Source of the DNA: Amphiscolops sp. MND2022
Taxonomy: Eukaryota
Reading direction: 5' to 3'
NCBI GenBank assembly: GCA_964187785.1
Contig: OZ076409.1
Span: 33,854,001-33,918,000, forward strand
DNA: 64,000 nucleotides
How positions within the stretch are numbered: the stretch's first letter is position 1; each line of letters starts with the position of its first letter. Below are positions 681-40,761 of the stretch, piece by piece. The notes under the pieces are model-generated. The model saw nothing but the letters and a program-made list of their open reading frames with translations, was not told the origin of the DNA and made no database searches. The position numbers and the translations under genes were made by a program.

Positions 681-1209
681 TGTTGGTAATGGTTCATCTT
701 TTGCCTATACCATATATACCATATCATACTACAAGTATATTTGTTAATTGTATCATGAAAAAGAACATTTTTACAATGACTTTCAGAGAATCAAATAATA
801 AGTAGTTTTCCAACACTTGGGTGTACTTTAGCTCCTGATTATACCAATTACATCTATTGTTATTGTCTCCCGGGTTTCTCTGATAATCGTTGAACTTGTT
901 TTTGCTAGAAATTGAGGCAAAAAGGCAAATTAGAGGCTACAAGTTGAATCAGATTCAATCAGAAAGTAGCCGTTTGAGTTTTTTGTATCCCTACACCACA
1001 AATTTTCGTTTTGAAAAACCTAGAGAAAATTTTAAAAGCTGATTGCTTACTGATACGGTCCCCAATTCGGAAGCATTCGAGTACTTTCCTTATTGTGATC
1101 CATTCAAGATGTTACAAGCCAGAAGCAAACGTCTTTTCTAGCATGTGGTTCCATTCCCGTGTACAATACAATCAGCAGAGCTCCATGGGCGTCGAAGCGA
1201 TGAATATAA

Positions 1210-1952
1210 TGTAACGGCAAGCTCTAGTACAGCAATATCAACCAACTTTGCAACTTCGACATGTTCAGAAAATTTTGTCAAAAATTCGTTCAAATCTGAC
1301 GTGGCACTCAAACATGCTCAAGACGAAGTACCTGCCAGAAAAAGCACCCCAGAAAAGCAGAAATCGCCGCTCGCGACGAACAAGCACCGGAGACGACTAA
1401 AAAGACGTCCCCGACGTATACAGAACACGGTATTGTGTCAATCTCTAGGAGATATCCAATACTACAGTAAAGGAAACCAGAGTTCCAGATGTTCGCCTGA
1501 GTATCCCTGCGGTATCCTGTGTGGCAACTAGCGCTAGCGCTGGGAACCTGAGGTCAATTTTCATCAAATGACTCTGAACTCTTGATTTCTTGTTGTATTT
1601 TTGATGTGGTAAATTAATATGCTCGAGAGCTGTTGTTTAACATCTGTTTATCCAATTTGGCGATTTTATCAGATTCTCCAATATTATGGTTCAACCTTCA
1701 TCGATTCTCAGCCCAATTTTTAAAGGCTAGTTGAGCAGTGGTCTTGAGTCTTGCAAGACGCCTGTTACTTTTAGCAGTTACAGACTAGGACCAGGCCAGA
1801 GAGCGTCCTACAAGACGGTTCCCCCACCTTGGGACTGGCTCCTTCGGAGGGAAAATGAGCTAGGGCCGCGGAGATCTAAGTCCCAGATTATATTCGCTGT
1901 TCTAGTTCCTCCACTCTACGTTGCGGTTCAAGCGCCAGCGCTTATCGTTACA
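1210..1952 (+). repeat. 5' LTR of element A
   Basis: Direct repeat of 6622-7364 with TGTAAC/GTTACA inverted termini. Confidence 0.95.
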
Positions 1953-1967
1953 TAGAAACTCATTTTT

Positions 1968-1984
1968 TGGCGACCACAGAGGGA
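1968..1984 (+). promoter_or_regulatory. Primer-binding site TGGCGACCACAGAGGGA (tRNA-Arg-like)
   Basis: Begins with TGG (complement of CCA) and is close to the complement of metazoan tRNA-Arg(UCG) 3' ends, recalled from knowledge and not matched to the host tRNA set. Repeated at 14590-14606 (-), 26399-26415 and 62171. Confidence 0.75.
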
Positions 1985-4655
1985 TCGTCTTGGGAAGCTT
2001 TCCCTAGCGGTTTTTAAAAGATCTGGCCCCCTGGTGTTCAGCGCCAAGCCCGTTTTCGACTCTGGACAGAAGAGAAGAGCAGAGTTTTACCTCTTTTTAG
2101 TCGTATTACGTCTTACTGGAACTGGGAGAGGCATTGAACCAGAGAAAATGCCGAAGAAAACGTGTTTTCAGGTGCGAAAATGGCATTTTTGGGCATTTTA
2201 GAAGGAAATCGCTCTTTATGTGTGATGTGTCGTATACCCATCAGCGGGTACTTTTTTGCAGGTGTAGAGGACTGTAGCACGTGGCTACGGGTGTCTAACA
2301 GGTTTTTTGAGCTATTTTCAGCCATTTTATGCCATGCAAGATGGTAACGGATGGATGGTTGACCATACTCCAGCGAGGCGAAGGAGGGGACGAATCTTGT
2401 GTTGCCTACTTCCTATTCCCGTTTCTCGTGGAGACGTCCTAGAGGCATGGTTTTTGGTGGACGGCAAGTGCAACGACAGACGGTGCTAATGGTCCCACCC
2501 GCGTGTTTCTATCTGGTCTAGAAGTGGAGAAATAACGTGGTGAAGATGCACCCCCTAGGACCAGATGAGTCGCTCAGATGGAGTATGGTTGGCGAAAATT
2601 TTGAAAATACACCTCTTTTGATGGAGAATCGTTGGTGCAGGTCAGTGACGTTCTACCATAAATGTAACGACACCCAACGAAGTGCTTTTCTGCGAAAAAG
2701 ATAGCACTTTGAGAAAAAAACCTCATTTTTGCGTTTTTTGGTGTTTTTCTTGATTTCGAGCACTAGTACTGACAGAAGCCAGGAAAGTGTGGTGGAAAGT
2801 TTTGAAAAAGCAGCTGCAAGGCTCGAGAAAGCCGGCACGAGGCACGAAAGGCGAAGTTGAAGCCTTTGATTGTGATAAAAGTGCCAATTTGATGCCGAAA
2901 AATGTGAAAAAAGTGGAAATTTGGCCAAAAAGGCACCCAAAATGTGAACGTACACGAGTGTGGAAGTGTAAAATGACAGTGTACGGCACTATCCCAAGTG
3001 TAGTTGACCCTCAGGATACTAATTGCAACTTTTGTAGCGGACTCAGGCAGCCTGGGGCTGATACAGTGCGAAAAACTTGTGATTTTTGGCATTTCCGAGT
3101 AGAGAAAGTGCATTAACCAAAAACACCCAGAGCAAAGCTTATTCGAAGAGAGCGGGCTCGAGCGCTCTCATTTTTGATTGTAGCAGCAAAAACGACGCAT
3201 TGTGGTGAAAACCGCATGCGAAAATTCCTTTTCAGCGTTGAGAAAAGTTGAAAAACCTTGATTTTTGGCCAGTTTCAGGAGTGCCAGAGTGCATCATTAA
3301 AACCTCTAGGGCACTCAGTGTTTTCGAGACCGGGGAGCCCGCGCGCTCCTATTTTCTGTTTTTATAATACAAACAACGCATCGTGGTGAAAACCGCGTGT
3401 AAAAACTCCCATTCAGTGCTGAGAAAAGTGGAAAAACGCACTGAATTTGATCAATTTTCCACAAAATCGGACTGTCTCTGAGCTAGGGTCGGGTCATTGA
3501 TTTCTGAACCCTAGCCAAAAAGCGGTTGCATCTTCGCAACCACTACAAAAATTAACGTCAGTGCCGAAAATTTGGTGAGCATATCGCTCACCCAAGTTGA
3601 GAAAAGCTCTCTGACGTTTCGACTTCAGAAAAGCACAAAAAGTCGAAAAAATCCAAAACTACCGGACTGTCAGTGCCTTATACCTGACGGGCACAACCAA
3701 TCGAGGGTAAATCCCAGTGCTACGGATAGTGGGGCAACACGCTGGTCCCATTTTGCCTGCCGTATCACTTTCTGAGGTGATCCTCTTGGTCAATTTGTGA
3801 AAAAAGTCGTCAAAAGCAGTGTTTTTTCGTGTACAACCTACATAGTGGGTCGAAACCTCAAATAAGCGCTCGCGCTTCAATTCGACCATATCAGTGGCAT
3901 TGTAGGTGCCCACAGGCATAAATTACCAAGTCTGGTGCCGATCTGTGTGATACTTGTTGAGAAAATAGGAAAAACGTGGCACCCAAAAAGGCGTGCAAAA
4001 AGGCAGTTTTTTCTTAATTTTTCCGAGTAACCCGGGCACCTTAGCCGACGGGTGGGGCTACATTGCAGCCCACCATCGTATCCTGTGCCAATTCCTACGT
4101 TGCTGCAGAGAATTTGAGCTTGCTAGCTTTTTCCAGTGGACCGCAATCTTGAAAAAGACGTGAAAAACAGTGTATTTCGGTACATAATGGTACCGCACGT
4201 CCGTACCTAGGTGAAACTGTGTAGAAGGGGCGCAACTCAAAACTGCGTTCATTTTCGTAAACCTACGTGTACCTAAGATCTGCTGGTCAATTTTGGGCTG
4301 GATACGGCGCTTCCCGTGCACACCCGAGCCTGTGGAAAGTTACCGTGCGAATTTTGAAAAATCCGAAAATTCCTTGAAATCCTTCCTGTGGGCGACTAGA
4401 GACTTTTTGCCCCAAACGAAGTTGATTTTTCAGCCCAGTGTGCTTGTGGAAAGACGTTGTGCAAATTTGAACAGCCTACGAGCTCTAGAACGTGTTACGA
4501 AAAATCTAGAACGTTGAATACCACCAAAATTCTTAAGTGCTCACCGGGACGACCAAGGGATCAGCTTCGAATTGAAGACCCTGGTGCGTTCGGCAACCCA
4601 ATTTGAGTCTTCCGAGTAATCGTGAGCGGTAACTCGATCGCTATCAACAAACGCG

Positions 4656-5987
4656 TTGACCACCGAACCGATGGCGGTGTCCCATACTGGTTCACAATCA
4701 TGGGTCACGATAGAGGGTTCGTGTTTTTCAGACGACATGTCTGATGAAGTCACTATCGAACAACAGCGAAAGGAGGAGTTGGCCGCTATGGTTCCTCCCT
4801 CAGAGAACTCCAGTATTTCTGCAAATTCGCGTCGAACTGAGCAGTGGGTCGACGAAACCTGCCGCGATAGAGCTAATGAAGTGGAAGAGGCCTGGCCTAA
4901 TTCGAACGTGACCGATGAACTGGCGGCCGAGGAAGGGTGCTCGCGCGCACCCACGGCTGGAGAAAGGCAACTTGGCTCACAAACTGACATGGAGCAGGAC
5001 CTCACTTATGTGGGAGGCATGAGTTACGCGCGACAGCGGGGACTCGGGACCACTCGAGGACCTACCCGGGTCTGTGCCTACGGGAAGCACAAAAAGGCAC
5101 GACCACCTCTACTACAGGTAGGCGAGCCACGTCAAGAGGCATCCCGTGTCAGGAGTATGACAGGCTCATTGGCCTCATCGCAACGGTCCTCAGTATACAA
5201 GGCAGCGTTATTGGATGCCCTAGCCGAAACCGAACGGGCTCTAGCAGGTCTGGCCAGCACTCGTTCTGAATGCAATGAGCAACATCTTGCTATCGTAGAG
5301 AACATTAAAGTGATGCAAGCGACGATGCGTGAAGGCCTGCAGGTCAGTGATCAATTGCGCACCGCGCAGAATGTGCAAAATGCTCGAGTGGACACATTGG
5401 GTCACCGGATAGGAGAGATGAATGACACGTTGATGTCTCGTGAGCTGCGCGTGGAAACGCAGATCAACGATTTAAGCAATCAGATGCACACGGTACTCAA
5501 TGCCATTGATGTCATGAGGCGTGAGAGGTCACTCCCGCGGCAGCCCAATGCAAGTGGAGGCGTGCGGAATGGAGGTACAGTCCGTGTCTCGGAGCCGACG
5601 TGCCCGAGCCAGGTAGTGAAGTCGGAACTGCCGAGCGCGCTAAAGCCTAGCACTTCCAGGCCGGCGGTGCCTGCGCCCCGGAAAGAGGAAGGAGTAGCCG
5701 GAAATTTGGTGATGGCCATGCCTGAAGCAGAGTGCAAGCCTGCACGAGTGCAGATGAGGGGGCATCACGACTCAGCAGAATCATTGATGCCTTCTGCAAC
5801 CCAGAGTACCACTCGAGATCAAGGCGTGGACCCGATGTCGACCATCTATCTTGATTCCTCGGTCGAAGTCGACCTATCTAACACCAAAGCAACCCTAGGC
5901 TCTCAAACCGAGGGAGCGACGTTTGCAACTGCCCCTATTTCGATGTCAGGACCAGATTCTTTATACTGGAGCGCAGACTGTTCTTAA
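4656..5987 (+). CDS. 443-aa Gag-position ORF of element A (low-complexity plus coiled coil; no CCHC, no pol)
   Basis: Intact long ORF; the start codon is uncertain. The N-terminal motifs EQQRKEE, EGCSRAP and YVGGMSYA match the gag-position region of element C (29130-29470). Central heptad-rich segment. Confidence 0.75.
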   Translation: MTTEPMAVSHTGSQSWVTIEGSCFSDDMSDEVTIEQQRKEELAAMVPPSENSSISANSRRTEQWVDETCRDRANEVEEAWPNSNVTDELAAEEGCSRAPTAGERQLGSQTDMEQDLTYVGGMSYARQRGLGTTRGPTRVCAYGKHKKARPPLLQVGEPRQEASRVRSMTGSLASSQRSSVYKAALLDALAETERALAGLASTRSECNEQHLAIVENIKVMQATMREGLQVSDQLRTAQNVQNARVDTLGHRIGEMNDTLMSRELRVETQINDLSNQMHTVLNAIDVMRRERSLPRQPNASGGVRNGGTVRVSEPTCPSQVVKSELPSALKPSTSRPAVPAPRKEEGVAGNLVMAMPEAECKPARVQMRGHHDSAESLMPSATQSTTRDQGVDPMSTIYLDSSVEVDLSNTKATLGSQTEGATFATAPISMSGPDSLYWSADCS

Positions 5988-6621
5988 TTATGATTATATA
6001 GTTAGTGTACCATTAGTGTTGCACTGGGTGTACGGCCAATAGAGTACGCCTGCCCCAGTGGCTTGAGTGACCAAGCAGAAAGAAAAGAAAACTATTGTTC
6101 AAAAAACTATCATTTTTGTTGTGCACCGTTCGCGGTGTTTTTGAGTTGTCACAATCAAAAGAAGTCTTATCCCTCTTGATTGCGTTTCTTTCTAGTCTAG
6201 TGTTCTTCATCAATCTGGTTGTTCACCGTAAGAGCCCCCAAGCTCTAAAAAAGTTTTTAATCGCCTGAAATGAAATGAAGACTTGTAGTCTCAAATGGTA
6301 AGGAAAGGAAATTTTAGCTGACTTTGCTCGCAAAAAAGTTTTTACACAAGTTGACTGCCCAAACGAATTTTAAACCGGCTGAAAACTGTAGCTCTCGAGC
6401 TGGTGCTAAAACCTAGTTCATGTTTTGTACGAATAGCTAGGCAGTAAGTTCTTTTTTTTGTGAAAAAACTGCAAAGTCGACCAAAATTGTTGCCGAAAAA
6501 CAAGGACTCATCCTTGTTCTCCGATGTGTGGATGGTGGTTCCCAGCAGTCACTGTGATGCAGTTCCCAGACGATCCAGACGCCGCTTGCCAGGGACGACA
6601 AGCCAGGAGCCTGGGGAGTGA

Positions 6622-7364
6622 TGTAACGGCAAGCTCTAGTACAGCAATATCAACCAACTTTGCAACTTCGACATGTTCAGAAAATTTTGTCAAAAATTCG
6701 TTCAAATCTGACGTGGCACTCAAACATGCTCAAGACGAAGTACCTGCCAGAAAAAGCACCCCAGCAAAGCAGAAATCGCCGCTCGCGACGAACAAGCACC
6801 GGAGACGACTAAAAAGACGTCCCCGACGTATACAGAACACGGTATTGTGTCAATCTCTAGGAGATATCCATTACTACAGTAAAGGAAACCAGTGTTCCAG
6901 ATGTTCGCCTGAGTATCCCTGCGGTATCCTGTGTGGCAACTAGCGCTAGCGCTGGGAACCTGAGGTCAATTTTCATCAAATGACTCTGAACTCTTGATTT
7001 CTTGTTGTATTTTTGATGTGGTAAATTAATATGCTCGAGAGCTGTTGTTTAACATCTGTTTATCCAATTTGGCGATTTTATCAGATTCTCCAATATTATG
7101 GCTCAACCTTCATCGATTCTCAGCCCAATTTTTAAAGGCTAGTTGAGCAGTGGTCTTGAGTCTTGCAAGATGCCTGTTACTTTTAGCAGTTACAGACTAG
7201 GACCAGGCCAGAGAGCGTCCTACAAGACGGTTCCCCCACCTTGGGACTGGCTCCTTCGGAGGGAAAATGAGCTGGGGCCGCGGAGATCTAAGTCCCAGAT
7301 TATATTCGCTGTTCTAGTTCCTCCACTCTACGTTGCGGTTCAAGCGCCAGCGCTTATCGTTACA
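6622..7364 (+). repeat. 3' LTR of element A
   Basis: Direct repeat of 1210-1952, preceded by ggggagtga. Confidence 0.95.
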
Positions 7365-9166
7365 TAACGCGCATTTATATAACTTAGGCTTGTAGGTGAA
7401 TTACTTGGACGAGTTTCATGATTGTAGTGTAACAGCAAGCGCTAAGCGTTTGGGACGAAACATTGGAGTGGAGGAACTGACACTATGGATATGGTCCGGG
7501 ACAAACCACCAGCTCACTTTGTCCTCCTGTGGGAGCCGGTCCCGAGGAGGGGGAACCGTCTTAAAGGATGCTCTCCGGCCTGATCCAGTCTGTAATTGCT
7601 GAGAATAACGGGCATTATGCTTTTTCTCTTCATAACCACCGTCTAGACAGCCTTTAAAAACAATGCCAAGGATAAACAGTGTAAATTTCCAATTCCAGGG
7701 TGAAATTCCAGGGTGACATGTGAATAAGGTCTAAAATGGGTACTAAGATCTAAACTGCGAAAACTAGCGCATAGGCTAGCTAAAACCAGTGAACAAACAT
7801 CCAAACAGGCACGACTATGGCCAACCACACAGCTACAAGCTGGGGCACAGGGACTCCAAGCACCAAAATAGGATAATTCGGCGAAAAGACGCATTTTTCC
7901 GGTTCTTGCTACTTTGGGTAGCATAATGCTGAAAATCGGTAAAAACCGGAGTTAGCACCTCAAAAAGAGTCTATTTATGAGTTTTCTGAGCGCATTGGCT
8001 TCTACACTCCGTGTTCCCGTTCGGTCGTCTCCGCGGGCGGCTTGCTTCGTCTTCTGAACTGCTTTTTGACAGGTACTTTGGCCAAAAACCTGCTCAATTT
8101 GCCACGTCAGATTTGAACGAATATTTGGTCGATTTTTCTGAAAACTCGTTGTATCACAGGTTTCCGTTACATCCACTCACCGGGTCTTATGCATGACATC
8201 CCTGTCATGGGGACAGGCTGGAAACGTCTCCACATCATTGCAATCCGCTGGGAGTTCAATCTGATGTTTTTGCAAGGGTCCAGTGGCACTGTCATCTTTT
8301 TCTGATTGGGCAACCTTGAGGTCTTGCTTCTTGAAATCCAGGAACCTGAATCGTCCACAAACTGTTGAAACAGAGATAGCCCTCGAGTTAGAAATAAGTA
8401 CTCAAAAATGCACCTTGAAATTGATCAAATCCCAAAAAAAGCACCAGTTTGTTAGCATGGTTTTTTTGCACCAAAACTGATTAGGATCTTTCTAGCACAA
8501 AGAATGTTTGGACATCTAAAATTTCTTTCACGGAGCTCTCAAGCTCCAAAACGCACGTGGTTTTCATCAAAAATTTCTTGTCCACGGCAGTAAAAACCCA
8601 GTTTGCTGAAAGTTAAAAGATGTTAAAAGATAAAACTTCTTTTCAGCGGAAAAACCACTGTTTAAAAGGAAAAACAAGCTGTATTTTCAACACTTTTTGT
8701 TCAGTTTCAATTGGTTTGGGCAACACGCACTGATGTGAAGCTCCATACCTGCATAGTGGTCAATTGCATCGGTTAGGCTGCGCATAGGAAGCAAACTACG
8801 AACTGCTCGTAAGTGTAAGCACTGGAATGAAATACGCCAGAATAAACAAAATCCAACAATTCAGACATCTGGAGCGCGCGAGCTCCACAACTTTCGAGTG
8901 TCAAGTTGAAATTTGGAGGAAAAACTGAAAACTTTGGGAAAATTTTACGCAAAACAAAAATAGCACCTTTTGGGCGAAGCAATACATGTTGAGTTTTTAG
9001 AGTTTCTGGGTTACTCATTGAATCAACAGAAGTCTTTGAATTCAAACATCTCAAATAAAACTAAAAACAAAAAAGTCGCGACGTACGTTTACATGACTAC
9101 TAAAATTACGAAATAAAGTTGCAGAAATAACTGCTCCAATTAGAACATCACGCTGCAAGGTGTTTG

Positions 9167-13600: not shown

Positions 13601-14621
13601 AGGCAATTGCATCACTATCTGGCACTCTTCCAGTAGCATTTCATGGTGGTTTTTTGCCAATTTCGCCAAAAACCGGGTTTTTTCATAAAAAATGCGTCTC
13701 AAAAAGGACTCCAATAGCCTTTCTGGTGAACATTACATTATGTAGCAGTACCCTAGAGGTTTCGAGCTGCTTTCCATCCGTTTTTGCAACTTCTGTGGTA
13801 AAAATCTAGAGCGCATGGGCTCGTACCAAGAAAAACACTCAGAAATGCCAAAATTGACGTTTTTGCTACTTTTGCACCCAAAATTGGACTTTTCTCACTG
13901 AAAACGGTTGCAAAAGCACACACTAAGTTGCAACAGGGTAAAACTAGCATGAACAAACGATTCCCCATCAAAAATTACACAATCGAAAAAAAATTTCATA
14001 CCATACTCCAAAAAATTGATTCTTCCGGAATGAGGGGTGGTACCTTCGTCGTCTTTTTTCTCAACATCCAGACCAGCTAGAGAAAAACAGTTTAAACCGT
14101 CGGCAACGTCAACACTTGTTCTACCTGTCCACCAAGTCCCATCCTTCGATGACGTCTGTAGTAGAAATGTGAAAGGAGAGTCGGGAACACTCGTTTCAGC
14201 TCATCTATCAGTCAGATGGAATATGGCGCATCCATCAACTGAATACCTCGTACATAGCCAAAAACGCTCAAATGAGCTGTAAAACATCTGTTACAACATG
14301 CGTAACGGCTTTCTAGCGGTTCGCTAGGCCATTACAAAGGTACCCGCTGATGGGAACGTGCAATTTTAGACGATACCTGTCAACAAATACCTGTTATCAA
14401 AACATACCATAGGTATTCGGGAAAATCCGGTGAAAGATTGGAAAAATACCAAAATATAACATCATATTATCTAAAAAACATGGAAAAATCCAGGGTAAAC
14501 GCCTCCTTCCAGAGCCAAATCGTTCTTGGCGTCAAACACCAGAGGGCCGGAACTTTTAATAACCATGAAGGAAAGCTTCCAAAAGACGACCCCTCTGTGG
14601 TCGCCAAAAAATGAAGTCCCA

Positions 14622-16410: not shown

Positions 16411-16545
16411 AAAATAGTCAACTTTCAACTGGACCATGTTAACTATTAAAATAGTCAAGAAAAATAGTCAATGGATGGGAAATATCAATCCACTTGACTA
16501 TCTCCCTTGGAGATAGTCAGGTGGATGGAGATAGTCAAGTGGAGT
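16408..16545. repeat. Short repeat cluster (ATAGTCAA units) with near-perfect hairpin at about 16487-16527
   Basis: atccacttgactatctcc-ctt-ggagatagtcaggtggat, followed by another ggagatagtcaagtgga unit. Confidence 0.6.
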
Positions 16546-26298: not shown

Positions 26299-29039
26299 TA
26301 TAACGTCATCTTGTGATGAACGAAATTTTGGCTATTTTTCCATTCCAATGTCACGACACAATCGCTTAGCGCTTGCTGTTACATGGAACATCATTTTTTG
26401 GCGACGACAGAGGGATCGTCTTTGGGAAGCTTTCCTTCATGGTTATTAAAAATCTGGCCCACCGGTGTTCAGCGCCTTGACAGTTTCGACTCTGTGGGAG
26501 AAGCCAGCACTTCGCCTCTTTTTAACGACTGCATGTATTCTTGGAAGTTGGAACGAGAAGGATCCTGAAAAACCCGAAAAAAAAACACGTTTTCAGGTGT
26601 GATTTTGGCTTTTTGAAGGAGAAAAATCAGTGAATGCATGTTTTGTGATGTTGTAATGTGTTAACTCATCAACGGGTATGTGTTTTGCAGGTAGTAGTTA
26701 CCGTAGCACGTGGCTACAGGTGTTTAACAGGTGTTTCTAGCTTTTTTCAGCTTTTTGAGCAATGCTGATGGAAGAAAAGCCATACTCCAACAGAGCGACG
26801 GGGGTACGATATGGAGTAATGTCGTTCGTTGTTTTCCGTTTCTCGAGGAGACGTCAAGATATGGATAGCGAGTGCTAGTGCTGACAGTGCTAACGGCCCA
26901 AACCGAAAGGCTCTAGCTTGTCTGGGTGTGGAGAAATTGCGTGGCGGATGGGTCATGATTCGCGAAATATTTTAATTTGCACCTTTTTTGTGGGGGATCT
27001 ATGGTGCAGGTCGGTGACATTGTTTGCAAAATGACGACATCCTATGGAACGCTTTTAAGCGAAGAAAACAACGATTTTTTGCAAAAGTAGCAATTTTTCG
27101 TGTTTTTTGGTGTTTTCCTTGATTGGAGCACGAGTGCTCCGTAAGTCCAACGTAGTCTTGCAAAAAGTGGGGCAAAAGTAGCCTCGAGCCCCGAAGGAGT
27201 CGGGAAATATAAAGGTTAACCGTTCTTAAATTTCATCAAGGGAAAAAGGATGTGTTTTGTTGTGAAAGTGCAAAAACTGGAAAAACGGGCGAAAAGTCAC
27301 CTAATACAACTGGTGTAGTCAGGTGTAGAAGCCTGGGGAATCGTTGTAAAGTGATTTCTCGAGCAAACCACAACTCCAGGGCACCAGAATCAAAATTTTT
27401 AGTGAGTTTAGCCGCTCCTGAAACCACGGATAAGCAAAAACTATATAATTTTGGCTCCTGTGGGCTATGTAGAGCACATAGTAAAAAATACTCCAGAGCC
27501 AACCCTAGATTGCACGAGAGAGCTTTCGCGCTCTCATTTTCTGTTTTTAAAGTAAAAACAACGTGTGGTGGTGTAAATCACTTGTAAAAACTCCCATTCA
27601 GTGCTGATAAAAGTGGAAAAACGCACTGAATATAACCAAATTTCCACAAAGTCGGACTGTCTAATTGTTAGGGTCGGGTCATTGATACCCGAACCATAGC
27701 TAAACAGTGGTTGCATTTTCGTAACCACCACCAAAATAAACGTTAGTGCCGAACTTTTGGTGAGCCTAGCGCTAACCAAAGTCGAGACAAGCTTTCTAAC
27801 GTTTTGACCTCAGAAAGTACTAAAACAGCTCAAAATAGCCGAAACTGTAGGACCGACAGTGTCTTATACCTAACGGGCACGACTAATTGAAGGTTTGTGG
27901 TAGTGCTGTGACTAGTGGGACAACACGTTGACACCATTTTGCCTGCAGTAACATTTGTAGTATCGACCCTCTTAGTCAATTTGTGAAAAAAGTGTCAAAA
28001 AAGACTGTGTTCGCTAAAATGGTGTCTGTACCCAGTCGGAAATCCTGGAAAGCTCTCGGGCTTCCATCAAATCCTTGAACCCGAATTGGGTGCCCACTGG
28101 CAACGCCTACCAAGTTTCGTGCCGATCGGTGCAGTGTTTGTTGAGAAATTGACGAAAACGTACTGCACAAAAAGAGGTGCAAAAAAAAACAAATTTTTCG
28201 AAAATTTTTGGAAGAGCTTGAACACCTTATCCGAAAAGTAGGGGGGTAAAGTGCAGCCCACTGGCGTAATTCGTGCTAATGGGTGCACTACTAGGGAGGA
28301 AACCGAACCGCTAACTGAACCTGGTGCTTAGAAATTGCATGATAAGCGTGCATTTTGACCCCTCCTGATACATAGGTGTACCGCACGTTTGTACCGAGGC
28401 GAAACAAGCCTCAGAGCCTGAATTGGCGTTCACCACCGTGTACCTACGTGTGTGTAGGATCCCCTGGCTAATTTTGAGCCGGACCCAACCCTTCAGTGAC
28501 GAATACGAGTTACTTGTGTTTTTTTCGTACTATCCGATGAAATTCAAAAATTGTAGTAGGTGTCTCGTGCTCGTTCCAACGAACATGTAACCCCTAACCG
28601 AGAATAGTTTCCAAATTTGAGGGTTGGAAACTAATGCTGGGGCAAATTTGAGCTGGCTACAACCACTAGAAGCGATTTTGATTTTTTTCAAGCGTGCTAA
28701 GACTGGGTTTTGGTTGAGTCCTCACCGGAAGGACCAGCGGTCGCGCACTCTCCAAGGACCCATAGGTACAAATTCTGTGATCTCTGAGTATACGTGGTTG
28801 TTTGGTAAGTCGAGCAGAGCGACGCGCAGTCTTTTACCTGCGAGCGTGATTATTTGGGCCTCGCTGATATCCCAGTGGTGCATTCGTTGATAGTTCATAC
28901 GTACCTTCGTGAACTTCCTCACGTAACAAGCAATCGCTACACCATGTTTTGGGCTGGTGCGCTGGCTATTGTCATACTACTTACGCGCCATTCAACAACC
29001 GCACCCAAAAAGAGCGAATCTTGTGCTTCCGGAGTCATC

Positions 29040-32000
29040 GGGACGGGTGAGATTCAGGAAACTAGCTCAACCCAACGCGAGAGTTCTGGAAGTGATAGTA
29101 ACTTGAGCATACGGGAATGGCCCACTGTTAAACCTTTAGTGACCAATTCCTCTTTTTCAGAAGCAATGTCTGATATAGTAAATATCGATCAACAGCGAAA
29201 GGAAGAGCAAAACGCTATGGCTCATGACCGAGATAATTTACCAGTTTAGGAGGAACTCCTCCGCACCGGACAATGGATACAGGACACCAGGAGCGGGTTA
29301 TTGTCACTTCAAACGGGTGGATTTTGGCCCAACTCAAAAAACCGGCTGTTGATACGACTCCTTTGCGCGAAGGGTGCTCGAGGGCACCAAATGAAGGTAG
29401 CAGCCCTGGCAGCAAAGACACTGATGCTATCCTTGAGAGCAAGACGTAGGTGGGTGGCATGAATTATGCCAAGTGTCGCTTGAAGGCCAGTCGTACGAAG
29501 GGCTCCGAAAACAGAAGAAGGTGCGTCTTCCGACATTGTGTATGCAGGATGAATGGGACCGTGACAATGCACAGTCAATTCGCGACGGTACCACCTCTAT
29601 CGCCACAACGGGTCATTTTGCCCGAGACTGTCCTACCCGAGATCAGGCTCACAAACCCGCCGTAGTCCCAGAGCCCGAAGCTGTGAAAATCACCATTGAA
29701 AACGTCGTATAGTGCATCGCGGAGAATTGTGGTCTGGTGGATCATGTGGCTTCACAATGTGTGGAAAACGCTGTGAGTGACGACTTCGCTCACAGCCGAT
29801 CGGCGGAAGTCGAGGCGGCTGGTGCTGCTGCCCATATTGTGCCATTAGAGGATGACCGTTTGTTGACTCTCCACTCCGTGAAACATCCAGCCTTCTACAC
29901 ACCCCTCACCATATATTGTGATGCCAAGCAATTGCAAACGCACTTGGAGCCAACAACCTTCGACCCCAAGGGCGTACGCTTATATCCAATCATTTGATGT
30001 TGGCTGCAGTGCAGTTGCGTCGCCCGACATTAACTCTAGCCAAAATTTGGACTAAACAATCTATCTTGTACAAGCGAGTGAAACTCCCCACACCCAAAGG
30101 AGTGGTATGTCCCCTGAGACTCGGACAAATTGACCACGTATTCTCCAGTGCCCATTTGTGCCACGATGGACGGCGTGGACGTGAAGTTTGAAGCCTGCGT
30201 TGTAGTTGACGTGTCCCCTCCCAACATATGCCTGGGACCTCAAGAGCTCAAATGCTACAACATCAGTTGCCAGGAACTCACCGGCGAAGAACGAATAGAC
30301 GAGCGTGCGTCGCTCGTCGTATCCTTCATAGTGCCCCATGCGGCACCGGGGTGGTGCTGGAGGCCTATCTGAACAACTTATACACCGCCATTGGCAAAAC
30401 TATCGAAACATTTGGAATGGCGGAGCGTGTGCGCTTCCAATTAGGAGGCTAAGAGTTAGAGACGAATTTCGTTGTGGTGGACGATGCAATGGGAGTCGAG
30501 GGCATCTTGCTAGGCCGCAACTTCCTTCGAGTTTATCAGGTCCCTGTTGATCTGACATCAATGAGGATCGTGGTTCGTGCGCCTGTTCAACCAGTCTGGC
30601 ACCACGCCCACACCCAGGTAGGTGACTTCACTTTAGCAGTTCCCGTCCCTTTAGACAGCGACCTAGTGCTGCAACCCTTCGAACGTACGGTTGTGGAAGC
30701 CAAAGTAGTCACTGCCACCCTAGAGCCGCTAGTGTTTCAAAACGTTGTGTTGAACGCCGCCCTTGCGGACGTGTCACTACAGAATGTTGTGTTTTTAGAG
30801 GACTGCGGTGTCACTGTCAGTGAGACAGGCCATGTGTTCATCAGCGTGATGAACCTCACGAGCAACCCACAACGTATTCGTGAAAACACCCACCTGGGAA
30901 CAGTGGTACCCGTAACCCTTGTGTACCGAGCTGTATCCCAACAAGTGGATAGTCCAAAACTAAAAACTGACTTTGATTAAAACCACGTCGATTTTGTTCA
31001 TAAAGTTTATGAGGAAATTATTCTCAGTACTAACTCCCAATTAACGTCTTCGTCAGAGTTCGAGTTTTTGTCGTCAACAGATCCTACTGAGGAAGGCCTT
31101 TCAGACCGCGAAAAGCGGAAACACACGGATCCTGACCTAATGGCTTCATGCCTGACCAGAGTCGCGGCTACAGGAAGTGAAGGACCTGTGAGGTTCTGAA
31201 GCAAGCACCTCTTTAGAAAACATTTTACCCGAGTTTGATGACTTGTTGACGAAACATAAGGCTGACATTGGTCGATGCACAATAGCCAAAAATCTATTAG
31301 ATGTAGAACCAGGTGCCGTGCCGCACCGTGGGGTTGCCAGGCGTATGTCCCCTGGAAAAGCAGCACGTGCCAACCAAGAGGTGTGTCAACCGCTTGCGCG
31401 TAGAATGATCCAACCCTCACTGTCCCTTTGGGTCAGCGGCATCGTCATGATCAATGCACCAATGGCAAGCTCCCCCATGAGACAGACGCCTCCGACCTAT
31501 TGTCTATGGCAGCAAGAAATTGATCGCTACTCAGGCAAAGTACAGAGCTCGTAAGTTGGAAATGTACGCCGCCTACCACTTCGGAAATGTACGCCGCCTA
31601 CAACTTCATCGTCAAGAACCACAACAACTTGTGCGCGCGAAAGTTGACTTTGAGAGTAGACAACCAAGCACTGTCGTGGTTAAACACCTATTCAACCGAT
31701 CAGACTGGCATTGGTCGATGGATAATAGCTCTCGCGAAGTACCACTTCCGCGTGGAACAATGACCACGGACACAACATTGCAATGCCGATGGTTTGTCTA
31801 AACGGAATATTGACTATCGATGGCGATAACAACAGCTAGAAAAACATCCCCCAGTAGCTGAACGCTGGAACTTCTTGTCTCAAGATGAGTATGAAATATT
31901 GCCCACTGCATCATGGTTTGACGTGCAAGGCCGAATCATACCTAACCAACCTGATCTGCCATCGCTCCTGCGAAAAGTGCAACCCACCCCTCTTGATTTG

Positions 32001-33700
32001 GTTCAGCGCATTATTTGTCGCACACAACGGAACAAACGACAGGAAAAGCAAAAAGAAGCTTGGACGGCACCACTGCCGCCGCCTCACCCACCCGTGTTGC
32101 ACGCTCACGAAGACTTTTATCCTGACTATCCTGAAGACTGGATAGATGTAACCAAGGAAGCAAGCAACCGTTTACTTACTGCCCACCCACGAGGCCAGCG
32201 TATCAGTGTTACAGAATGCTCCCAATATTATCAAGAAGGCGGAGTGGAAATACTATTCGAAGTCTCAGCACTGATCTTCACAAGCTTGCCCACACTGTCC
32301 ATGGCATCAAAGTTCTAGTGTTAGCCCAGAACCGAGACGTTCATGTCTTGGCACTCAAAAAACTGGTCAACAACGAAAAAATTGACCAAGACATCTTTCA
32401 GGAGGATGTGCGTGCTGTTGCCTGCAACTATTTCAAACAAAAAAAAGGAACTGCTATTTTTGAACTCCAACGGAGTTCTTTGTGCGAAGTATCCTCTGTC
32501 ACAGCGACTGTTGCATGAACGGCCCCGCATGATTGTGATGCCCCAATTTACCAGCATGAGATTCTCTTTCGTGCGCACGATGCAATGGGTCACCAGGGCA
32601 TCAGCAGAGTTGTCGCGCGCTTACAAGAACGCCATACTTTGCCTGGGATTCGTCGCACTCTAGGGCAATACGTCAGTCAATGCCTTACTTGCCAACAAGT
32701 ACGAGATGAACCTGGCGACGTCCGCTTTCACCTCAACAACATCCGGAGTGGGTACTTTAACGAGCTGGTCCAGTATGAAGCTTTACCCCTCCAATGATGG
32801 CAACACGGGAATTTTGGTCATCATTGACCACTTCTCCAAATTTGCTGAAGCTGTACCTTGCAGTCACGATAGTATGACGCCATCACCACGTCTTGTTTAG
32901 TGCTTCAAAAATGGTTTGCCCGACAAGGCGCGCCCACGCGCATCCAATCTGACAACGCTCCCAATTTGCCCGCTGAGGTCTCGAACGAGTTCATGAAGGC
33001 CTCGCAAGTCACCAAGAGGTCACCTCTACCGCTGGTCACCCGCGTACCCAAGTATTGGTGGAGCATCAGAATCGCACACTCTCACTTTGCTGCGAGTATT
33101 TTGTTACCGCTGGATGCGCGACTGGGATAGGCACCTAGATGAAGTGCTTGGTGCATACAATTCTACCCGACACGCTACATCAGGGCATTTGCCCTACAAG
33201 TTGACGCGTGGTACTGAGGAAGCGATACCGCTCACGTACTTCTACCCTGAGTTTTCGACTCAGTCATTCGCGACGCATGACGCATATGTAGAAAATGTGT
33301 TGGCCCGCAAACAAGAAACTGGTGAACTGGTGCGTCGCAACACCCACCAAGCTCAATTGCATCAAAATCTTAAGGACGACCGCACCATACGGGCCAAGGC
33401 GTACAAGCAAGGTGATCTCGTATGGGTTTTTTGCCGATACGTCCCGCAAAAATGTTCGACCAAGTTGATGCGCGCCTAGCGTGGTCCGCTACGTGTAGTT
33501 CATGTTTTTCAGGAGGGACGTGTCTACATCCTAGACACTGGGCAAAAAGTGTACTTTGAACATCTTAAACCGCATCACAATGGCCCCACGGAATATGCCA
33601 CAACCCTTGACACTGGCAAAATCGCCGTCATCATGAATCCGGAGCCCGAGCGCTCCATTGAACCCATAAATGATCTATTCCAGCCTCCTTACAAGTCTGA
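29040..33700 (+). pseudogene. Decayed gag-pol of element C with the RT core deleted
   Basis: Zinc-knuckle remnants GHFARDC and CGLVDHVASQC. Protease C-terminus ILLGRNFL. The RT start (IQPSLSLWVSGIVM) runs almost directly into RNase H (PIVYGSKKL..QAKY...LEMYA) at about 31450. Integrase motifs HDAMGH...CLTC, IDHFSKF, IQSDNA, AYNSTRH. Many stops and frameshifts. Confidence 0.9.
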
Positions 33701-33979
33701 ACACTCATTTTCCGAAGCTTCGAATGTATAATTGCCTTCACGCCGACAACATTGGATGAATACGCGACTGCGCACCAAACTCCGTGTTGGAGAGTCTCAA
33801 GTGCATTATCAGCAATTCGATTATTTAACAACGGACACGAACGATGAATTTTCTGAAGCAAAGCTCCCCATTCCCACCTATCCCCAAGACCTGGAGCAAC
33901 CCATAACGCCTCCGGACTCATCCCCTGAGTATGATACCTCTTTTCATGACTGCCTCCCTTAATTGTTTTCTGACCACGA

Positions 33980-36900
33980 GCTCGCGCGCTCACCGTCACG
34001 CCAGAAAGAGGACAAAACGAGGACTTAGTTCCCGGCATTGTTGTACGAGCGGAGAAGACCTTTGCTGGTGTAGAAAGAACTGACAATCACTCAGCCGAAA
34101 TAAATCTACAACAAATCGCAGTGCCAGGTGTCGCGAAAGTGCCATATCCCCAATTCAAAGAGTGGACGAGCGATAGCAAAGGCCTTGAAATCACGCTAGC
34201 AACGATGGTTCCCCCAGTTCTCCCCAATATTGTGTTTGGTCCGTTCAACGTTGAGCGAGAAACAGTGCAAATGGCCAGGTACAATACTGCTGACATGCCA
34301 CTCGACCGATACGGGGTAGAAGTTGAGCCGGGTGGCGTCTACAATCCCGTCCCGTACTGATGGTTATTGGTGATTGCTCCACGCGTCGACACGCAAGTGA
34401 ATCCACAGTTTTTGCTGCTATGCTTGGAAAGTCTGAGGAAGATTTAATCTTATGCTTCCACCTCATCGATTGGTATCAAGGTAAAGTAAAGTTTCGCTGG
34501 TGGTAAGACTTGATCATCACGTGTTTTGTTAACTACGATCATCACGTGTTTTGTTGCAGTCTTCCTGGCCTGCAAACATGGCTAGATGCACTTTTGCAGC
34601 CCGATGGCTGCATGTCGACAAGGACTAGTCAAGATCCTAGACCCAGCACCGCAACACAGCGTGCGCTATCTCCGATTCCAGGGCTATTGCCCGTCTCAGA
34701 CCAAGAACACGGACGTAAGAGGGTCTCGTCCCATGACCTGACTGGATCGGCAAGCACAAGTGACAGCTCGACCAGTCGTCTCCCCCCTGACAAACGGAAC
34801 AATGTACCACGTTCGGTAGTGATCTCAGAGCCCCCCAAAGTGGGTTATCAAGGATTTTCCTCAGCCCCAGCTATCGATGAGTGAGGTGATGGAACGTTAC
34901 GCACCCAGTCCTTCTTCTGTGCTCGAGGGCACAGCAAACACAGCGTCATCTAGTTCTGCTTAATCGGCAAGGAGAACACCCAAGGTCCCGCCATACTATC
35001 TACCTTCAAAGGATGTGGCTGGTTCCTTGGTGACCAGGGATGCCAATCAAATCTGGCAGGTAGCATCACGGCGATCAGAAAGGCAATTCAGAGATCGCCA
35101 GCGTGTTCCTCCCTCAAGTGCTGACAAGGCGTAATTGAGAAATCTATCAAAAGTAGCTCACTTGTCGAGGACACTTCGCGCCTTTGACGTCGACATTGGT
35201 GAGCAGGCATGGGACCAGCGCGTCGTAGTGCGACTGGCGCTCGCCCATGTCAACTATCTACAACCAATGCAGAACAACTTGCATGAACTGTTTAACGCTA
35301 GGTACACCTTGCAAGCCGGCGACACCTGTGAGACCCACAGTGTGTATCCGCGGAGTCTAGAGTCATTGAAGCCTATTCCCAAGAACTTGATACAACGTAC
35401 GCGATTTTGCGTGATGAAGAGGGTTTCAGCAGTTTGTGTACATGCTAACCGAGGTCTGCATAGCGAAGACATTGAATTTTATGTGTGCTCCTAACCTGCG
35501 CGTCGGACAGGATGATTTGCGCCCAGCAGCACTGTCAGTCCACGTATTATTGGCGGCAATATTCCGTCTGCTGCATGCACTGGAAAAAAACGGCAACGCA
35601 CAGTTGACGTGGGATGACACCATTAATTACGACCATGTGCGACCATTATTACAACCACGAATGCGTCTGTGTTGTCTGATGTTTCATGAGGAAGGCAACC
35701 GCCTTCACGATGCTACTTTGGCGGAGCGAAAACAAGCGCCTATACAACTGGTTGGTCCGTAAGGCCCATCCCACCGCGGTAAAGGCAGACTTGGCCGCAG
35801 TGTGGGAACAAATTGGCAGTTGGCCGGCAAATCGGGAGGTGTAACGCACTACAAGTCCACTTTGCTGAGAATACGGAGATCATCAAGCTACCACTGGGTC
35901 TGCGACACATTGTAGCCCATGAAGCTGTGACCCTAGAGCGGGCAATAAAAGCCCGTGAAATCACCTACGTGAATGGTACCAAGACCGGCTGGCGACGTTC
36001 ACCCACCCAATGGCAGCTCGAGCGCTGTCTGTTTCCTTCCCGGCCCTCTTGACAAGTTTCGGCCCAGGCTGGAACCTGGATGTTGTAACTGACGAGTTCA
36101 AATTGAGTCGAACGCAAGTGAAAAAACTCACTGACACACCAGAACTCATGACCGTCAATGAGGGGCTAGCTCGCGCGCTATCCTTAGGACCTACTAGATT
36201 TGTGGCTGGTCCTCTAGCCATGATCGTGGACCTAGTAGCAGGCTCGCTTGAGTTCTACACGTACTCAGTACTGGCTCAAGGCAAGATGAACAGACTGATT
36301 GGCTCAAGCGAAGTGTTATTCATACAAGACAAGCAGAACTATACTGAGCCCTTGCTAAAACTTAGAGCCTCCCTACAACATTGGCTGTAGTCGTCGCTGC
36401 TGGTCTTCGCGTCCGTCAAATTCGTGGGTGTGGACCAAGCGCAATCACTCCACTATCCGGACATCAGCTCCCCAATGAAAATGCTGGATTCCCCATCCCG
36501 CAAAAACTTGGGGGATCTCACATTGTCCGAGGTCGAAGACTTGGTTCCAGTTATAGCGCCGATGCTAGTATCCGTCTTTGGACCTTTGGGACTACTGCGG
36601 TATCCAACCAAACCCGTGGCAATGGCTGTGCAAGTGGCCACGGTCTCCATTTTCACGTAATTACAAGGTATTCCTCACATGGACTATGAATACGTCATCA
36701 GAGAACTCCTTAGCAGTGAAGTGCTGCAAGTCGACACCACTATCAAGACGGAACAGCAAGCTGAGGTAAACTTGATGGGTTTCATTAGGGCCCGCACTCG
36801 GAAGGCGACTGTGCTGCCTAGAGAGTTCGTCCCAGTCAACTGGTACAATGCTCTCGTAAACCTGAATGGGCAACCGTTCAGATTTCCATGGCCCACAGAA

Positions 36901-37740
36901 ACATTGCGCAAGATCATTAATGCTAGCTTGAGGGCTAGTCCCAAAGTGCGATCCGATTACATGTTTAGATTCATTCAGATCCCCAACCGATACTGGAAGG
37001 AGCCCGTGGGCTACCACCGCCGGCGTCCTATTGCTCGAAGGCAAGAATATCTGAATCACCGATTGCAACATCTGGACTTTGCACGTGTCCACCTGAGGAT
37101 CGAAGTGGCCGCACAGGTGCGAGGGCGTAATCAGTACTGTCGCTACCTCCCGTGCAGTACGATTCTGCCTGGCACCCACAAGAACGGATGACAATGTCTG
37201 GCGACATGCCTTTGGTGCTACTGGACGTGGTCAATTCCGTCCTGGGCACTGAATTACGAGCTGAATGGGATGAAGAAAGTTTGAACTTGGAGATTAGTAA
37301 CTTCGAAGTATGGAAGAAAGCTTGCGGGCTCTGGAAGCAGGCGGCTCTGGATTTCCAAGCGTGTGGCCCTTGCTTCCACCGGCAGAGCTGAACAGAGCGG
37401 ACACGGGCCTTTGCGCAACCGCCGCAGCCTAATCCAACCCCCACAATGGCAATGTCGTTGTAGCAGCCACTGACTGTGGAAGCAGCTCCGGTAGATGAGG
37501 TCCTGGAAAATGCAGCAATGCCTGTGACACCCGATCAACCCGGCGAACATGCCGCGAAGTTAACGCCGAACGCAGCGTTAGTGGACCCAATCGGAGAACT
37601 CACGATCGACACCGACTCAGAAACAAGAGTACCGTCTTCCACTATACGTGCCTCAGCGAGCGAAGCCTTCTCTACCAACGGAAGTTTCACCCCCTTGCCG
37701 CAACAAATCGGCTACACAATGAACCAACTGCCAATATAAT
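33980..37740 (+). pseudogene. Extra 3' coding region of element C, unidentified and frameshifted
   Basis: A chain of sense-strand, protein-like ORF fragments (34121, 34510, 35135, 35436, 35813, 36010, 36424, 36679, 37152, 37476) lies between the integrase and the 3' UTR. Confidence 0.6.
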
Positions 37741-38493
37741 CGGTGAGTTTGAGGGCTCACCAGCTACGTACGGAGCCCACAAAACTGCCAAAGCTTAGAC
37801 TAACTGTTGTTACCTTTCTTTGGTGCTACCTTAATTTGGTGCAATTTTAGTTTGTTGTTATCTAGTTACTATTATTCGATAGTGTGCTGTGGGTGTATGG
37901 CCTCAGAGTCCGCCTGCACCGCCCCGCGTGCTAAAGCTGAATTAAACAAAGTGCCAAAGAAGCAACCAAGAAAATACTTTTTTCTTCACATCTTACACCT
38001 CGTGCGTTGTCACCAAAAGAAGATCCAGGCCCAAAGGCAAAAAGAGACCTGAAAAGATCTTTTCTGCTGAATTGCTATCCTTTCGTTGAGTCATGTGCAT
38101 TCTATCTACTGTCTTTCCTGTAGCGGAGTTTGCGCGCTCCCAGCAAAAGAAGTTGTAAACAAAAAACTGAAAAAACGGAATTCTAAAAAAACTGGAGAAA
38201 AAATTTTTTAGCTGGCATGAGCCATGAAAAACGTTTTATTTTCCAAAGGTGCTTCAAACTGGCAAAAGCCGCCCAAACAGTCTTAGCTCTCGAGCTGGTG
38301 CGAAAACCATCACGATTGTTTCTTAAAAATACAAAATTTTGAGGTAGTACTTCTTAGAATCCCGGACGGCGCTATTCCAGTAACAGCTGTTTGACAAGGA
38401 TTCGTCGTTATTTCAAGACGTATCCACAGCATGGGCAGCACCCTGTTCCTGCAATCCTTGCCGGGGACGACAAGCCAGAAGCCCGGGGAGTGG

Positions 38494-39187
38494 TGTAACG
38501 TCATCCTGTGATCAACGAAATTTTGAGAATTTTTGAAAAATTCGTTCGAAACTGACGTGACACTTGAACATGGTTTTGGCAAAGTACCTGCCACCAGAAT
38601 TCATAAGGAGACAGCAAGAGAAGTGTCCCGCGAAGAGAGAGTGAAAAAGAACGACTGTACAAGCACAAACTGGTCAAAAAAGAGACAGCAAAAGTGCCTA
38701 TATCCACGGTGTTTGCCTGCTGAATCACAGTTTTGCAGGACTGATCCGGAAAGCAGCATGACGGCTTAATTGCAGTACCCGAGCTCGGGGGTTGTGCCCA
38801 GCTCGAGCGCTGGTGCTATGCCGCCTGGAAGCCCACCCACTTCGCCAAACTGGACTTTATTATAGGAATTGACGTTTTTGCTTGATTAATCATTAGATCG
38901 AGGGCTACTCTTACAATGTGCTTTTACGCAAATTCCCACTGGTGAAATTCAGTTCTAAACTACCTTGTTGTTTTTGAGACATCTACGCGGTGGTTGTGAG
39001 AAGAAAGCATAATTCCTGTGATTTGTAGCAGAGAGCATCCTTAGAGACGGTTCCCCCTCCTCGGGGCCGGCTATTCTTAGGAGGACAACGTGAGCTGATA
39101 TCATGGTGGTTTGTCCCGGACCATATCCATGGTACCAGTTCCTCCACTCCAATGTCAGGATACAATCGTTTAGCGCTTGCCGTTATA
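38494..39187 (+). repeat. 3' LTR of element C
   Basis: Follows ccggggagtgg. Its ends match both ends of the 85-bp 5' LTR remnant, and its 3' part is similar to the B LTR. Confidence 0.9.
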
Positions 39188-40761
39188 TGAATTCCGAGCC
39201 ATTGTGATCTTTAAAACCGTCTTTTCTTTTTCTTGATTATTCTAAAGTTGCACTTTGATCGGCTTTCGCAGAAAATTTTTGATTGTTCGGTGATATCGAA
39301 ATAACATTTCTTCTATTCAAATGGTAACGTTCTGATTAGACAAAAATCTTGCTTCCTGATTCATTGTTGTTAAATTACGCTTTGTCCCCGCAACGTTGCC
39401 TGTAACGATGTTTAAAGTATTTTTAGAACTAATCGAAGAAAAACTAATTCAACACGAAGAAAAACTCACGTTAACCTCCAGGCCAACAAAAAATTATATG
39501 AAGGAATGACGATGCTGAACATCCCGACCAAATTATAGAAGTTATGGTGGAAAGGGGTGAAGCAAAAGAATTTTTTTAAAAATACCCTGGTTAAAACTAA
39601 GACATTCTGTTTCTTAAGAAAACGGGAAAACATTCTTGTCTTTTTTACAATAAAAACATTACGGCTTTTTGCGTAATCAACTTTCGCGGCATATGTATCG
39701 TAATGAATAAGAAAACTGTTGAATAGCATTTATTCGGTCTAGTTCGAATGCAATTTGGACTCTTCTTAGACATTTGACAATATTTCAATTTTGTCTCCAG
39801 GTTTATACACTCCAAACCTAAAAAGTGATCTTTAGAATTCGAAAATTGACTGCAGCAAAACAAGGTTTACGAATCCTGGCTGTAAAGCAAAACTTCCTGC
39901 TTTCCTCATCATCTGTAGTGAGCAAAATGAAAAAGAACGAGTTTCATGTAGCTATGTTGAGTAGTCCTGTGCTACTAGTCCTGTACTAAGCCTTTGTTAA
40001 GCCCAAAATGCCGTGGACACGCGATTCTTCGCCGTCATGTAATCCAGTACAGCCAATTAATGAAACTGGTTTTTTGTTCTTGTTCAAACAATCTTGAAAT
40101 TTTCAAATCTTGAAACTGAACAAGCTGTAGCCACGAACGCCGCGAGCTTGCAGGGGCGAACGGCGGATAAGACTTACGTGATAGGGTTTTAATACGTGAT
40201 AGGGTCCTGGGACAGGGAAATGGTAAATTACCCATTTTCTCTCCAGTAATGTCCCTTGGTGGAAACATAGCCTTCGGAAACAGAGCCAAGTAAAGGGTCA
40301 AATCATAATTGAACATTCAACAATGAGCAACAATTGGACCCCAAAGTTTTTTTTAAAAAATGAAAATAACACCTGCCAAAATGAATCTATGCGCTCCAAA
40401 GTTGTGCCATCTATTTGCGTGTTTTTGCGTTCCTTACCTTCCTATCTGCTCACCATCCTGCTTCCGAAATGTCGACGGCTGCAAATGAACAATCAATCAT
40501 GCTCGACGGCTACGTAGATCATCGACTTCGAATTTTTCATCTTGACTATCATTCATGTCATGTTTATGCCTAAATATGCGCAGTTTTTTAAATTACTTTT
40601 AGTTGCCGAATATTGTAATCAAAGACACTGTTACTTTGCAATGCGCAAAATACTTAACCGAGTTTTCAATTGTCAATGGAAAGGACAAAATGAAGTGTTT
40701 GTAGGTTTGAATCAAAACTCATAGAGGAACACCAATAACTAACCTTCAATTTACTTTTCAG

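Follow-up and report, generated by a model that had tools for sequence, protein, structure and literature searches.

The window, i.e. the whole stretch of 64,000 nucleotides analysed here (G000:C1:33854001-33918000 of the 1.07-Gb assembly of Amphiscolops sp. MND2022), contains four related elements bounded by long terminal repeats (LTRs), which were recognized by self-comparison of the sequence and by inspection. Element A is located at positions 1210-7364 and element C at 26299-39187 of the forward strand, element B occupies 7428-15373 in the reverse orientation, and element D begins at 61429. An earlier note on this DNA had assigned the elements to a Gypsy-type lineage with target-site duplications (TSDs) of 3 bp and had ascribed this length to an integrase with an unusually narrow stagger of strand transfer. 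The flanks are as described there: element A is enclosed by TAA and element B by TAG (each preceding TGT and following ACA), element C is enclosed by TGA (preceding TAT and following ATA), and none of the three pairs of flanks contains a match of 4-6 bp. Element D indeed follows TGA; the 3' LTR of D, located past the end of the window in adjoining sequence, borders on TGG, an agreement at two of three positions. The designation of A, B and C as complete copies did not hold, since all three are defective: element A has lost approximately 12.7 kb of its interior, the interior of element B gave no match to the two Gag-Pol proteins and the one product of open reading frame 2 (ORF2) with which it was compared, and element C retains an 85-bp remnant of the 5' LTR, lacks the core of the reverse transcriptase (RT) and contains many frame breaks.

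Genome-wide occurrence of the 3-bp duplication

The LTRs of elements A, B and C were used to search the genome, each search yielding the best 40 candidates, and 40 A-type, 30 B-type and 30 C-type matches were examined. With unpaired ends excluded, this set provided 56 scorable insertions, comprising 21 LTR pairs and 35 solo LTRs. The longest flank match was exactly 3 bp in 49 of them, or in 50 after one boundary correction (L071). The six exceptions are two tandem junctions without host flank, a 4-bp flank match beside a mutated end (L092), a TGA/TGG mismatch (L090) and two loci with damaged ends (L088 and L103); the loci L084 and L100 have common flanks and probably represent a single event. 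Two arrangements of tandem elements, L028/L044 and L073/L057, have one common LTR with internal sequence on either side. Two further families, E and F, were reached by means of an integrase search, and all ten of their insertions carry a 3-bp TSD. Additional insertions of family E were obtained by comparing the first 100 of 229 5' ends with the first 100 of 272 3' ends; 16 pairs resulted from the coordinates, 15 of them new, and of these 15 insertions 14 showed 3 bp and one showed 6 bp. The latter duplication (L259/L260, G000:C5:47712476-47727259) is clean, has exactly twice the usual length and was confirmed on the sequence. Altogether, and with the elements C and D of the window taken into account, 75 of the 83 scored insertions of the five related families A, B, C, E and F are flanked by an exact 3-bp TSD, whereas randomly paired flanks match at 3 bp in 3.4% of cases; the remaining eight comprise one TSD of 4 bp, one of 6 bp and six tandem, damaged or mismatched cases. 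These data clearly establish that the 3-bp TSD, initially noticed in three copies, is systematic and genome-wide.

An A-family insertion located inside a host repeat (L050/L048) allowed a comparison with the empty state, as the earlier note had suggested for empty alleles. Two uninterrupted copies of the repeat (L054 and L077) contain the triplet once, with nothing lost, although these copies are paralogous and represent one insertion; in a second candidate (L006/L014 versus L073), sequence divergence at the insertion point precluded scoring. This result bears on the view that the 3-bp matches reflect mis-drawn LTR ends or a self-repeating target motif, a view prompted by the three triplets of the window, which all start with T, and by the presence of TGA just inside the A-family 3' LTR. 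The element ends are, however, fixed by both LTRs and by the 35 solo LTRs, and 29 different triplets occur among 58 sites. Together with the rate of random pairing, the flank survey and the empty repeat copies refute this explanation, to which we assign a negligible probability.

The diversity of triplets also led to the rejection of TAA, TAG and TGA as a target motif, so that the target preference considered earlier is reduced to a weak and symmetric preference for A/T. A or T was found at position -3 in 49, at the centre of the TSD in 51 and at position +3 in 55 of the 58 sites, compared with a background of 63% (p values of 3e-4, 2e-5 and 2e-8, respectively), which corresponds to the pattern W-N-N-[N-W-N]-N-N-W centred on the middle base of the TSD. 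The same pattern was apparent in family E, with A/T in 93/100 and 92/100 of the ends listed, a count made by eye that still contains a few duplicates and some internal junctions. Symmetry around a single central base would be the expected trace of an intasome that has two-fold symmetry and an odd stagger.

The same genome provided a control. A search with a decayed integrase remnant that belongs to an unrelated Gypsy lineage (positions 17200-18750 of the window, reverse strand) retrieved 20 stretches, 15 of which had LTR pairs along with RT, while five (L249-L252 and L255) were left unscored as they had neither clean LTR ends nor an RT match. A TSD of 5 bp was detected in 14 of these 15 elements and none in the remaining one. 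The young relatives of the control integrase combine the 5-bp TSD with LTRs of 170-215 bp and a primer-binding site (PBS) that abuts the LTR. Accordingly, the 3-bp length tracks the lineage and not the host.

Element architecture and relatives

Full-length copies of the lineage are 15-19 kb in size, with LTRs of approximately 700-750 bp, interiors of 13-17.5 kb and TG..CA ends, and the termini read TGTAAC..GTTACA in families A, B, C, E and F. The five full-length A copies, each of about 18.8 kb with LTRs of 743 bp, have one common layout: the 5' LTR is followed by a 15-nt spacer, a PBS of 18 nt complementary to the host tRNA-Arg(TCG), a leader of approximately 2.7 kb, a Gag-Pol region of approximately 3,100 codons, an ORF2 region of approximately 1,440 codons and a short purine tract ahead of the 3' LTR, with Gag-Pol and ORF2 both interrupted at differing places in the five copies. 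The offset of the PBS, which amounts to 15-16 nt across the lineage, and the long leader agree with the earlier description, while the extra ORF is present in some families only. Genes for tRNA-Arg form a tandem array with a period of approximately 173 bp (G000:C9:57537789 onward, L152-L154) and encode the primer tRNA that fits families A-D; the 3'-end pattern of this tRNA has 255 matches in the genome, and 99 of the first 100 listed fall within the array. The PBS of family E differs from the Arg type and may correspond to tRNA-Lys. Family E (14.8 kb) has an integrase that is approximately 66% identical to that of family A, and family F has a size of about 19 kb. Family E is very young, with LTR pairs that are 100% identical in 6/6 copies and an open frame of approximately 3,000 codons in many copies (L131-L142), and the genome contains at least 272 near-identical 3' ends of this family.

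The Gag-Pol protein of approximately 3,000 amino acids is ordered Gag, protease, RT, RNase H (RH) and integrase between the direct LTRs. Pfam matches comprised RVT_1, RT_RNaseH, Integrase_H2C2, rve, zf-CCHC, a weak PNMA-like Gag and a protease. The zf-CCHC match corresponds to a Gag knuckle of the form CX2CX4HX4C, the RT motif reads YIDD or YVDD throughout the clade (YIDD in family A), and the HHCC-DD35E integrase carries a WRGP motif of the GPY/F type that aligns with YVGPF of Ty3. The best match of the integrase in the PDB is the Ty3 Gag-Pol protein (7q5b, E value 4e-28). The Pol tail of family A has no Pfam match of its own and resembles the macro region of the related protein P0139 (E value 2e-7); Pfam Macro is found at the C-terminus of Pol in the relatives P0139, P0151, L165 and L175. 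The latter two are metagenome contigs with 37-38% integrase identity that encode a long Gag-Pol with the terminal Macro match, followed by an ORF of 1,840-1,900 amino acids with a weak IBR match.

The ORF2 product (approximately 1,440 amino acids) has no match in Pfam or the Atlas and no detectable similarity to the ORF2 of L165 and L175; its 65 homologues are all unnamed. A structural model based on an alignment (pLDDT 49) gave weak matches to alpha/beta proteins, SGNH proteins among them, with a best Z score of 7.0 and Foldseek E values above 0.005, and the single-sequence model, with a pLDDT of 41, was of no use. The distance between the end of Pol and the 3' LTR is about 1.3 kb in family E, leaving no room for ORF2. 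Since family E produces 3-bp TSDs, ORF2 is not needed for them in cis and is an accessory gene rather than a cis-acting cause of the short duplication. Among the relatives, P0095 (a related Pol) has a precomputed match to Lipase_GDSL_2 (SGNH); this protein is broken after the start of the integrase, and the match may reflect fusion to an ORF located downstream.

Searches with the RT yielded proteins without a name, 53-98% identical, as well as four named ones from fish or frog with an identity of about 40%. Matches of the P0107 and P0096 groups in the Amphiscolops genome do not exceed 57-59% and about 50%, respectively, so that these groups stem from other hosts. Two clade members, P0181 and P0190, bear the annotation 'transposase' in a Planctomycetaceae metagenome-assembled genome, probably owing to eukaryotic contamination of the bin. 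Loci outside this genome comprised 79 from metagenomes and 2 from a viral collection, and among those of at least 5 kb no clade member with both LTRs was found. The integrase tree (FastTree, 93 rows covering most of the domain) contained a clade of 28 rows with a local support of 99, and the RT-RH tree (45 rows, midpoint-rooted, and computed without Troyka, BEL, retrovirus or named-clade references) contained a clade of 11 rows with a support of 100. The latter clade lies amid Gypsy-type proteins with a YXDD motif and at a large distance from the control lineage with 5-bp TSDs; it groups there with YLDD proteins from fish and frog. Both trees place the families in one supported clade beside YXDD Gypsy-type proteins.

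By their predicted domain order, YXDD RT, HHCC-DD35E integrase with a GPY/F-type motif, TG..CA ends, tRNA-type PBS and polypurine tract, the elements are of the Ty3/Gypsy type (Metaviridae). They deviate from it in the TSD of 3 bp instead of 4-6 bp (PMC12440569), a length that is typical of the group but no taxonomic criterion, in the long tail that follows the integrase, and in the loop after the first catalytic Asp, which is devoid of Gly-Pro. Their PBS is separated from the LTR by 15-16 nt, unlike that of the Gypsy controls from the same genome. The loop is one residue shorter and lacks Gly-Pro in 17/17 aligned rows of the clade, whereas Gly-Pro is present in 7/8 rows outside it. One may speculate that the clade-wide shortening of this loop contributes to the narrow stagger, the TSD length being read in the families of this genome alone. 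A later change, such as the 2-residue insertion behind strand 3, would be the alternative if the narrow stagger were confined to the branch of families A, E and F.

Proposed stagger width and comparison with known elements

The duplication is best explained by Ty3/Gypsy-type elements whose DD35E integrase likely joins the TG..CA ends to the target at positions 3 bp apart, a stagger that was probably reached independently of Troyka, the LTR elements already published with 3-bp TSDs; we assign a probability of about 0.85 to this reading as a whole. It is in line with the regular 3-bp TSDs, the symmetry of the target sites and the 5-bp controls. Reverse transcription would be primed by tRNA-Arg and, judging from the position of the PBS, the U5 end of the cDNA would run 15-16 nt past the CA. 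This tail would have to be removed before joining, with the integrase exposing the CA-3' ends. A symmetric intasome would then join both ends to opposite target strands 3 bp apart, as suggested by the TSD, the symmetry and the established chemistry of integrases (PMC9410886), and host gap repair would fill 3 nt on each side. The defective elements A, B and C of the window may have been moved by full-length relatives or may have decayed from them. IS3-family transposases, bacterial DNA transposons without RT or LTR, have a DDE core like that of retroviral integrases, TG..CA ends and duplications of 3-4 bp. This likeness suggests that an integrase-type fold can accommodate a stagger of 3 bp.

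An alternative assumption is that of an ordinary stagger of 4-5 bp followed by trimming of the gaps, through host repair or an activity encoded by the element, to leave 3 bp duplicated. A symmetric trim of 1 nt on a 5-bp stagger and a genuine 3-bp stagger would look alike in the flanks, and the elements carry extra domains without an assigned role, namely the macro-like tail and ORF2. Host repair, however, leaves 5-bp TSDs at 14/15 control elements of this genome. Trimming would have to remove the very base that becomes covalently linked to the 3' end of the element in strand transfer, according to established chemistry (PMC9410886), and family E has 3-bp TSDs without room for ORF2. Trimming is accordingly regarded as improbable.

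Several points weigh against the preferred reading of a 3-bp stagger. The stagger is deduced from sequence, and its independence from Troyka rests on features rather than on a tree, since the trees included neither Troyka nor named Gypsy-clade references. The empty-site check concerns one insertion and relied on paralogous repeat copies instead of true alleles. The rule is not absolute, as seen from the 4-bp match at L092, the 6-bp duplication at L259/L260 and the TGA/TGG near-matches of L090 and element D. Moreover, the two central dinucleotide steps showed no clear enrichment of YR (15/58 and 16/58 versus a background of 23%), although such enrichment is reported to increase with shorter TSDs in the abstract of PMC4422553.

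The earlier premise that integrases of LTR elements give duplications of 4-6 bp requires revision, since 3-bp TSDs have been published for Troyka, also termed Kuafuorterviruses (PMC12440569, PMC11673190). A duplication of this length is thus no novelty as such. According to these two papers, Troyka elements combine the 3-bp TSD, as opposed to 4-6 bp in other LTR retrotransposons (PMC12440569), with CG..CG ends (CGCCA..TGGCG), an RT motif IADD, VADD or LADD (PMC11673190), LTRs of 100-400 bp, interiors of 1.6-7.7 kb, a knuckle CX2CX8-10HX4C and an integrase devoid of the GPF/Y motif (PMC12440569, PMC11673190). The present elements resemble Troyka in the TSD and in the domain order, given as RP-RT-RH-IN within a single Gag-Pol of Troyka, and no env was seen. 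They differ in their TG..CA ends, the YIDD or YVDD motif, the WRGP motif of the integrase, the knuckle CX2CX4HX4C and the LTRs of about 700-750 bp, and their coding elements have a size of 15-19 kb, with only the non-autonomous A and B copies in the Troyka range. The macro-like tail and ORF2 further set them apart. Membership in Troyka was accordingly rejected, as six tested hallmarks (termini, RT motif, GPF/Y, knuckle, LTR length and interior length) are at variance with the published descriptions.

A derived Troyka that kept an ancestral 3-bp stagger while its termini changed and its size grew would account for the equal TSD length and domain order (PMC12440569), and the trees contained no Troyka sequence that could speak to it. 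Nevertheless, ends, RT motif, WRGP motif, knuckle and both lengths are outside the Troyka traits, and in the RT-RH tree the clade is grouped with Gypsy-type YLDD proteins from fish and frog. We consider this descent highly improbable, and even less probable than trimming. In the literature no Gypsy element with 3-bp TSDs was found besides Troyka, with some matches judged from their listing and with Repbase, GyDB and most subscription papers outside the search. The occurrence of this TSD in a Gypsy-type lineage with TG..CA ends, a GPY/F-type motif and a YXDD motif is thus probably new.

With respect to the oversized polyprotein and the additional ORF, the elements are reminiscent of other Gypsy-like elements of invertebrates, such as planarian Burro (PMC6431247) and the bdelloid Vesta and Juno with a GDSL/SGNH ORF3 (PMC5408684). 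The terms 'TSD' and 'target site' do not occur in the main texts of these two papers. Burro domains and env were not found here by Pfam, and unlike the ORF of the Vesta1 type, ORF2 was not shown to be an SGNH enzyme. Whether the lineage represents an undescribed, deep Gypsy clade of giant elements (15-20+ kb) from several hosts, with a 3-bp stagger that evolved independently of Troyka, an integrase that removes a U5 tail of 15-16 nt in place of a dinucleotide, and a macrodomain at the end of Pol, is in our estimate an evenly balanced question.

The length of the TSD is a readout of the spacing of active sites in the intasome. Retroviral integrases cut 4-6 bp apart, and a narrower stagger implies sharper bending of the DNA, according to the abstract of PMC4422553. 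If the proposed stagger is correct, the lineage would contain the narrowest-cutting GPY/F integrase known, would widen the range of 4-6 bp with a conventional Ty3-like enzyme and, next to 5-bp Gypsy integrases in one genome, would offer a natural and direct comparison for the determinants of stagger. A 3-bp TSD would then be weakened as a marker of Troyka. Annotation rules requiring TSDs of 4-6 bp could misplace the ends of a family as abundant as family E. It is doubtful whether standard LTR finders would overlook elements of this kind, as had been claimed, since LTRharvest with default settings recovered complete Troyka/Kuafu elements (PMC11673190).

Features of the elements in the window

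The features assigned to the four elements are compiled in Table 1.

Table 1. Positions of element features in the window
Element	Feature	Position	Strand	Remarks
A	Left TSD	1207..1209	+	TAA
A	5' LTR	1210..1952	+	743 bp, TGTAAC...GTTACA; 6 mismatches between the two LTRs of A
A	Spacer	1953..1967	+	15 nt, from LTR end to PBS
A	PBS	1968..1985	+	18 nt complementary to 3' end of host tRNA-Arg(TCG) plus CCA
A	Leader	1986..4625	+	About 2.7 kb, without long sense ORF
A	N-terminal Gag-Pol fragment	4626..5987	+	453 amino acids; stops at the internal deletion of about 12.7 kb (junction near 5979)
A	Putative polypurine tract	6610..6621	+	Short purine tract plus TGA ahead of 3' LTR
A	3' LTR	6622..7364	+
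A	Right TSD	7365..7367	+	TAA
B	TSD	7425..7427	-	TAG on forward strand, CTA on element strand
B	3' LTR	7428..8171	-	744 bp
B	ORF of 488 amino acids	9167..10633	-	Non-autonomous element; no Pfam match, no match among proteins compared
B	PBS	14589..14606	-	17/18 match to tRNA-Arg, 15 nt from LTR
B	5' LTR	14622..15373	-	752 bp
B	TSD	15374..15376	-	TAG on forward strand
C	Left TSD	26296..26298	+	TGA
C	5' LTR remnant	26299..26383	+	85 bp left after internal deletion; TAT at start, ACA at end
C	PBS	26399..26416	+	17/18, 15 nt from LTR
C	Broken gag-pol	28809..34536	+	Gag (in part), protease, RNase H (in part), integrase and C-terminal extension; RT core deleted
C	Integrase	about 32500-33600	+	In several frames
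C	Broken ORF2	34561..37661	+
C	3' LTR	38494..39187	+	694 bp; starts TGT, ends ATA
C	Right TSD	39188..39190	+	TGA
D	TGA flank and 5' LTR	61426..62155	+	A family; LTR at 61429-62155; 3' LTR outside the window, followed by TGG

The outer ends of element C (26299 and 39187) are altered symmetrically, TGT to TAT and ACA to ATA, while the inner ends are intact. The 488-amino-acid ORF of element B contains three RRRGRPP repeats, which we take to be AT-hook-like.

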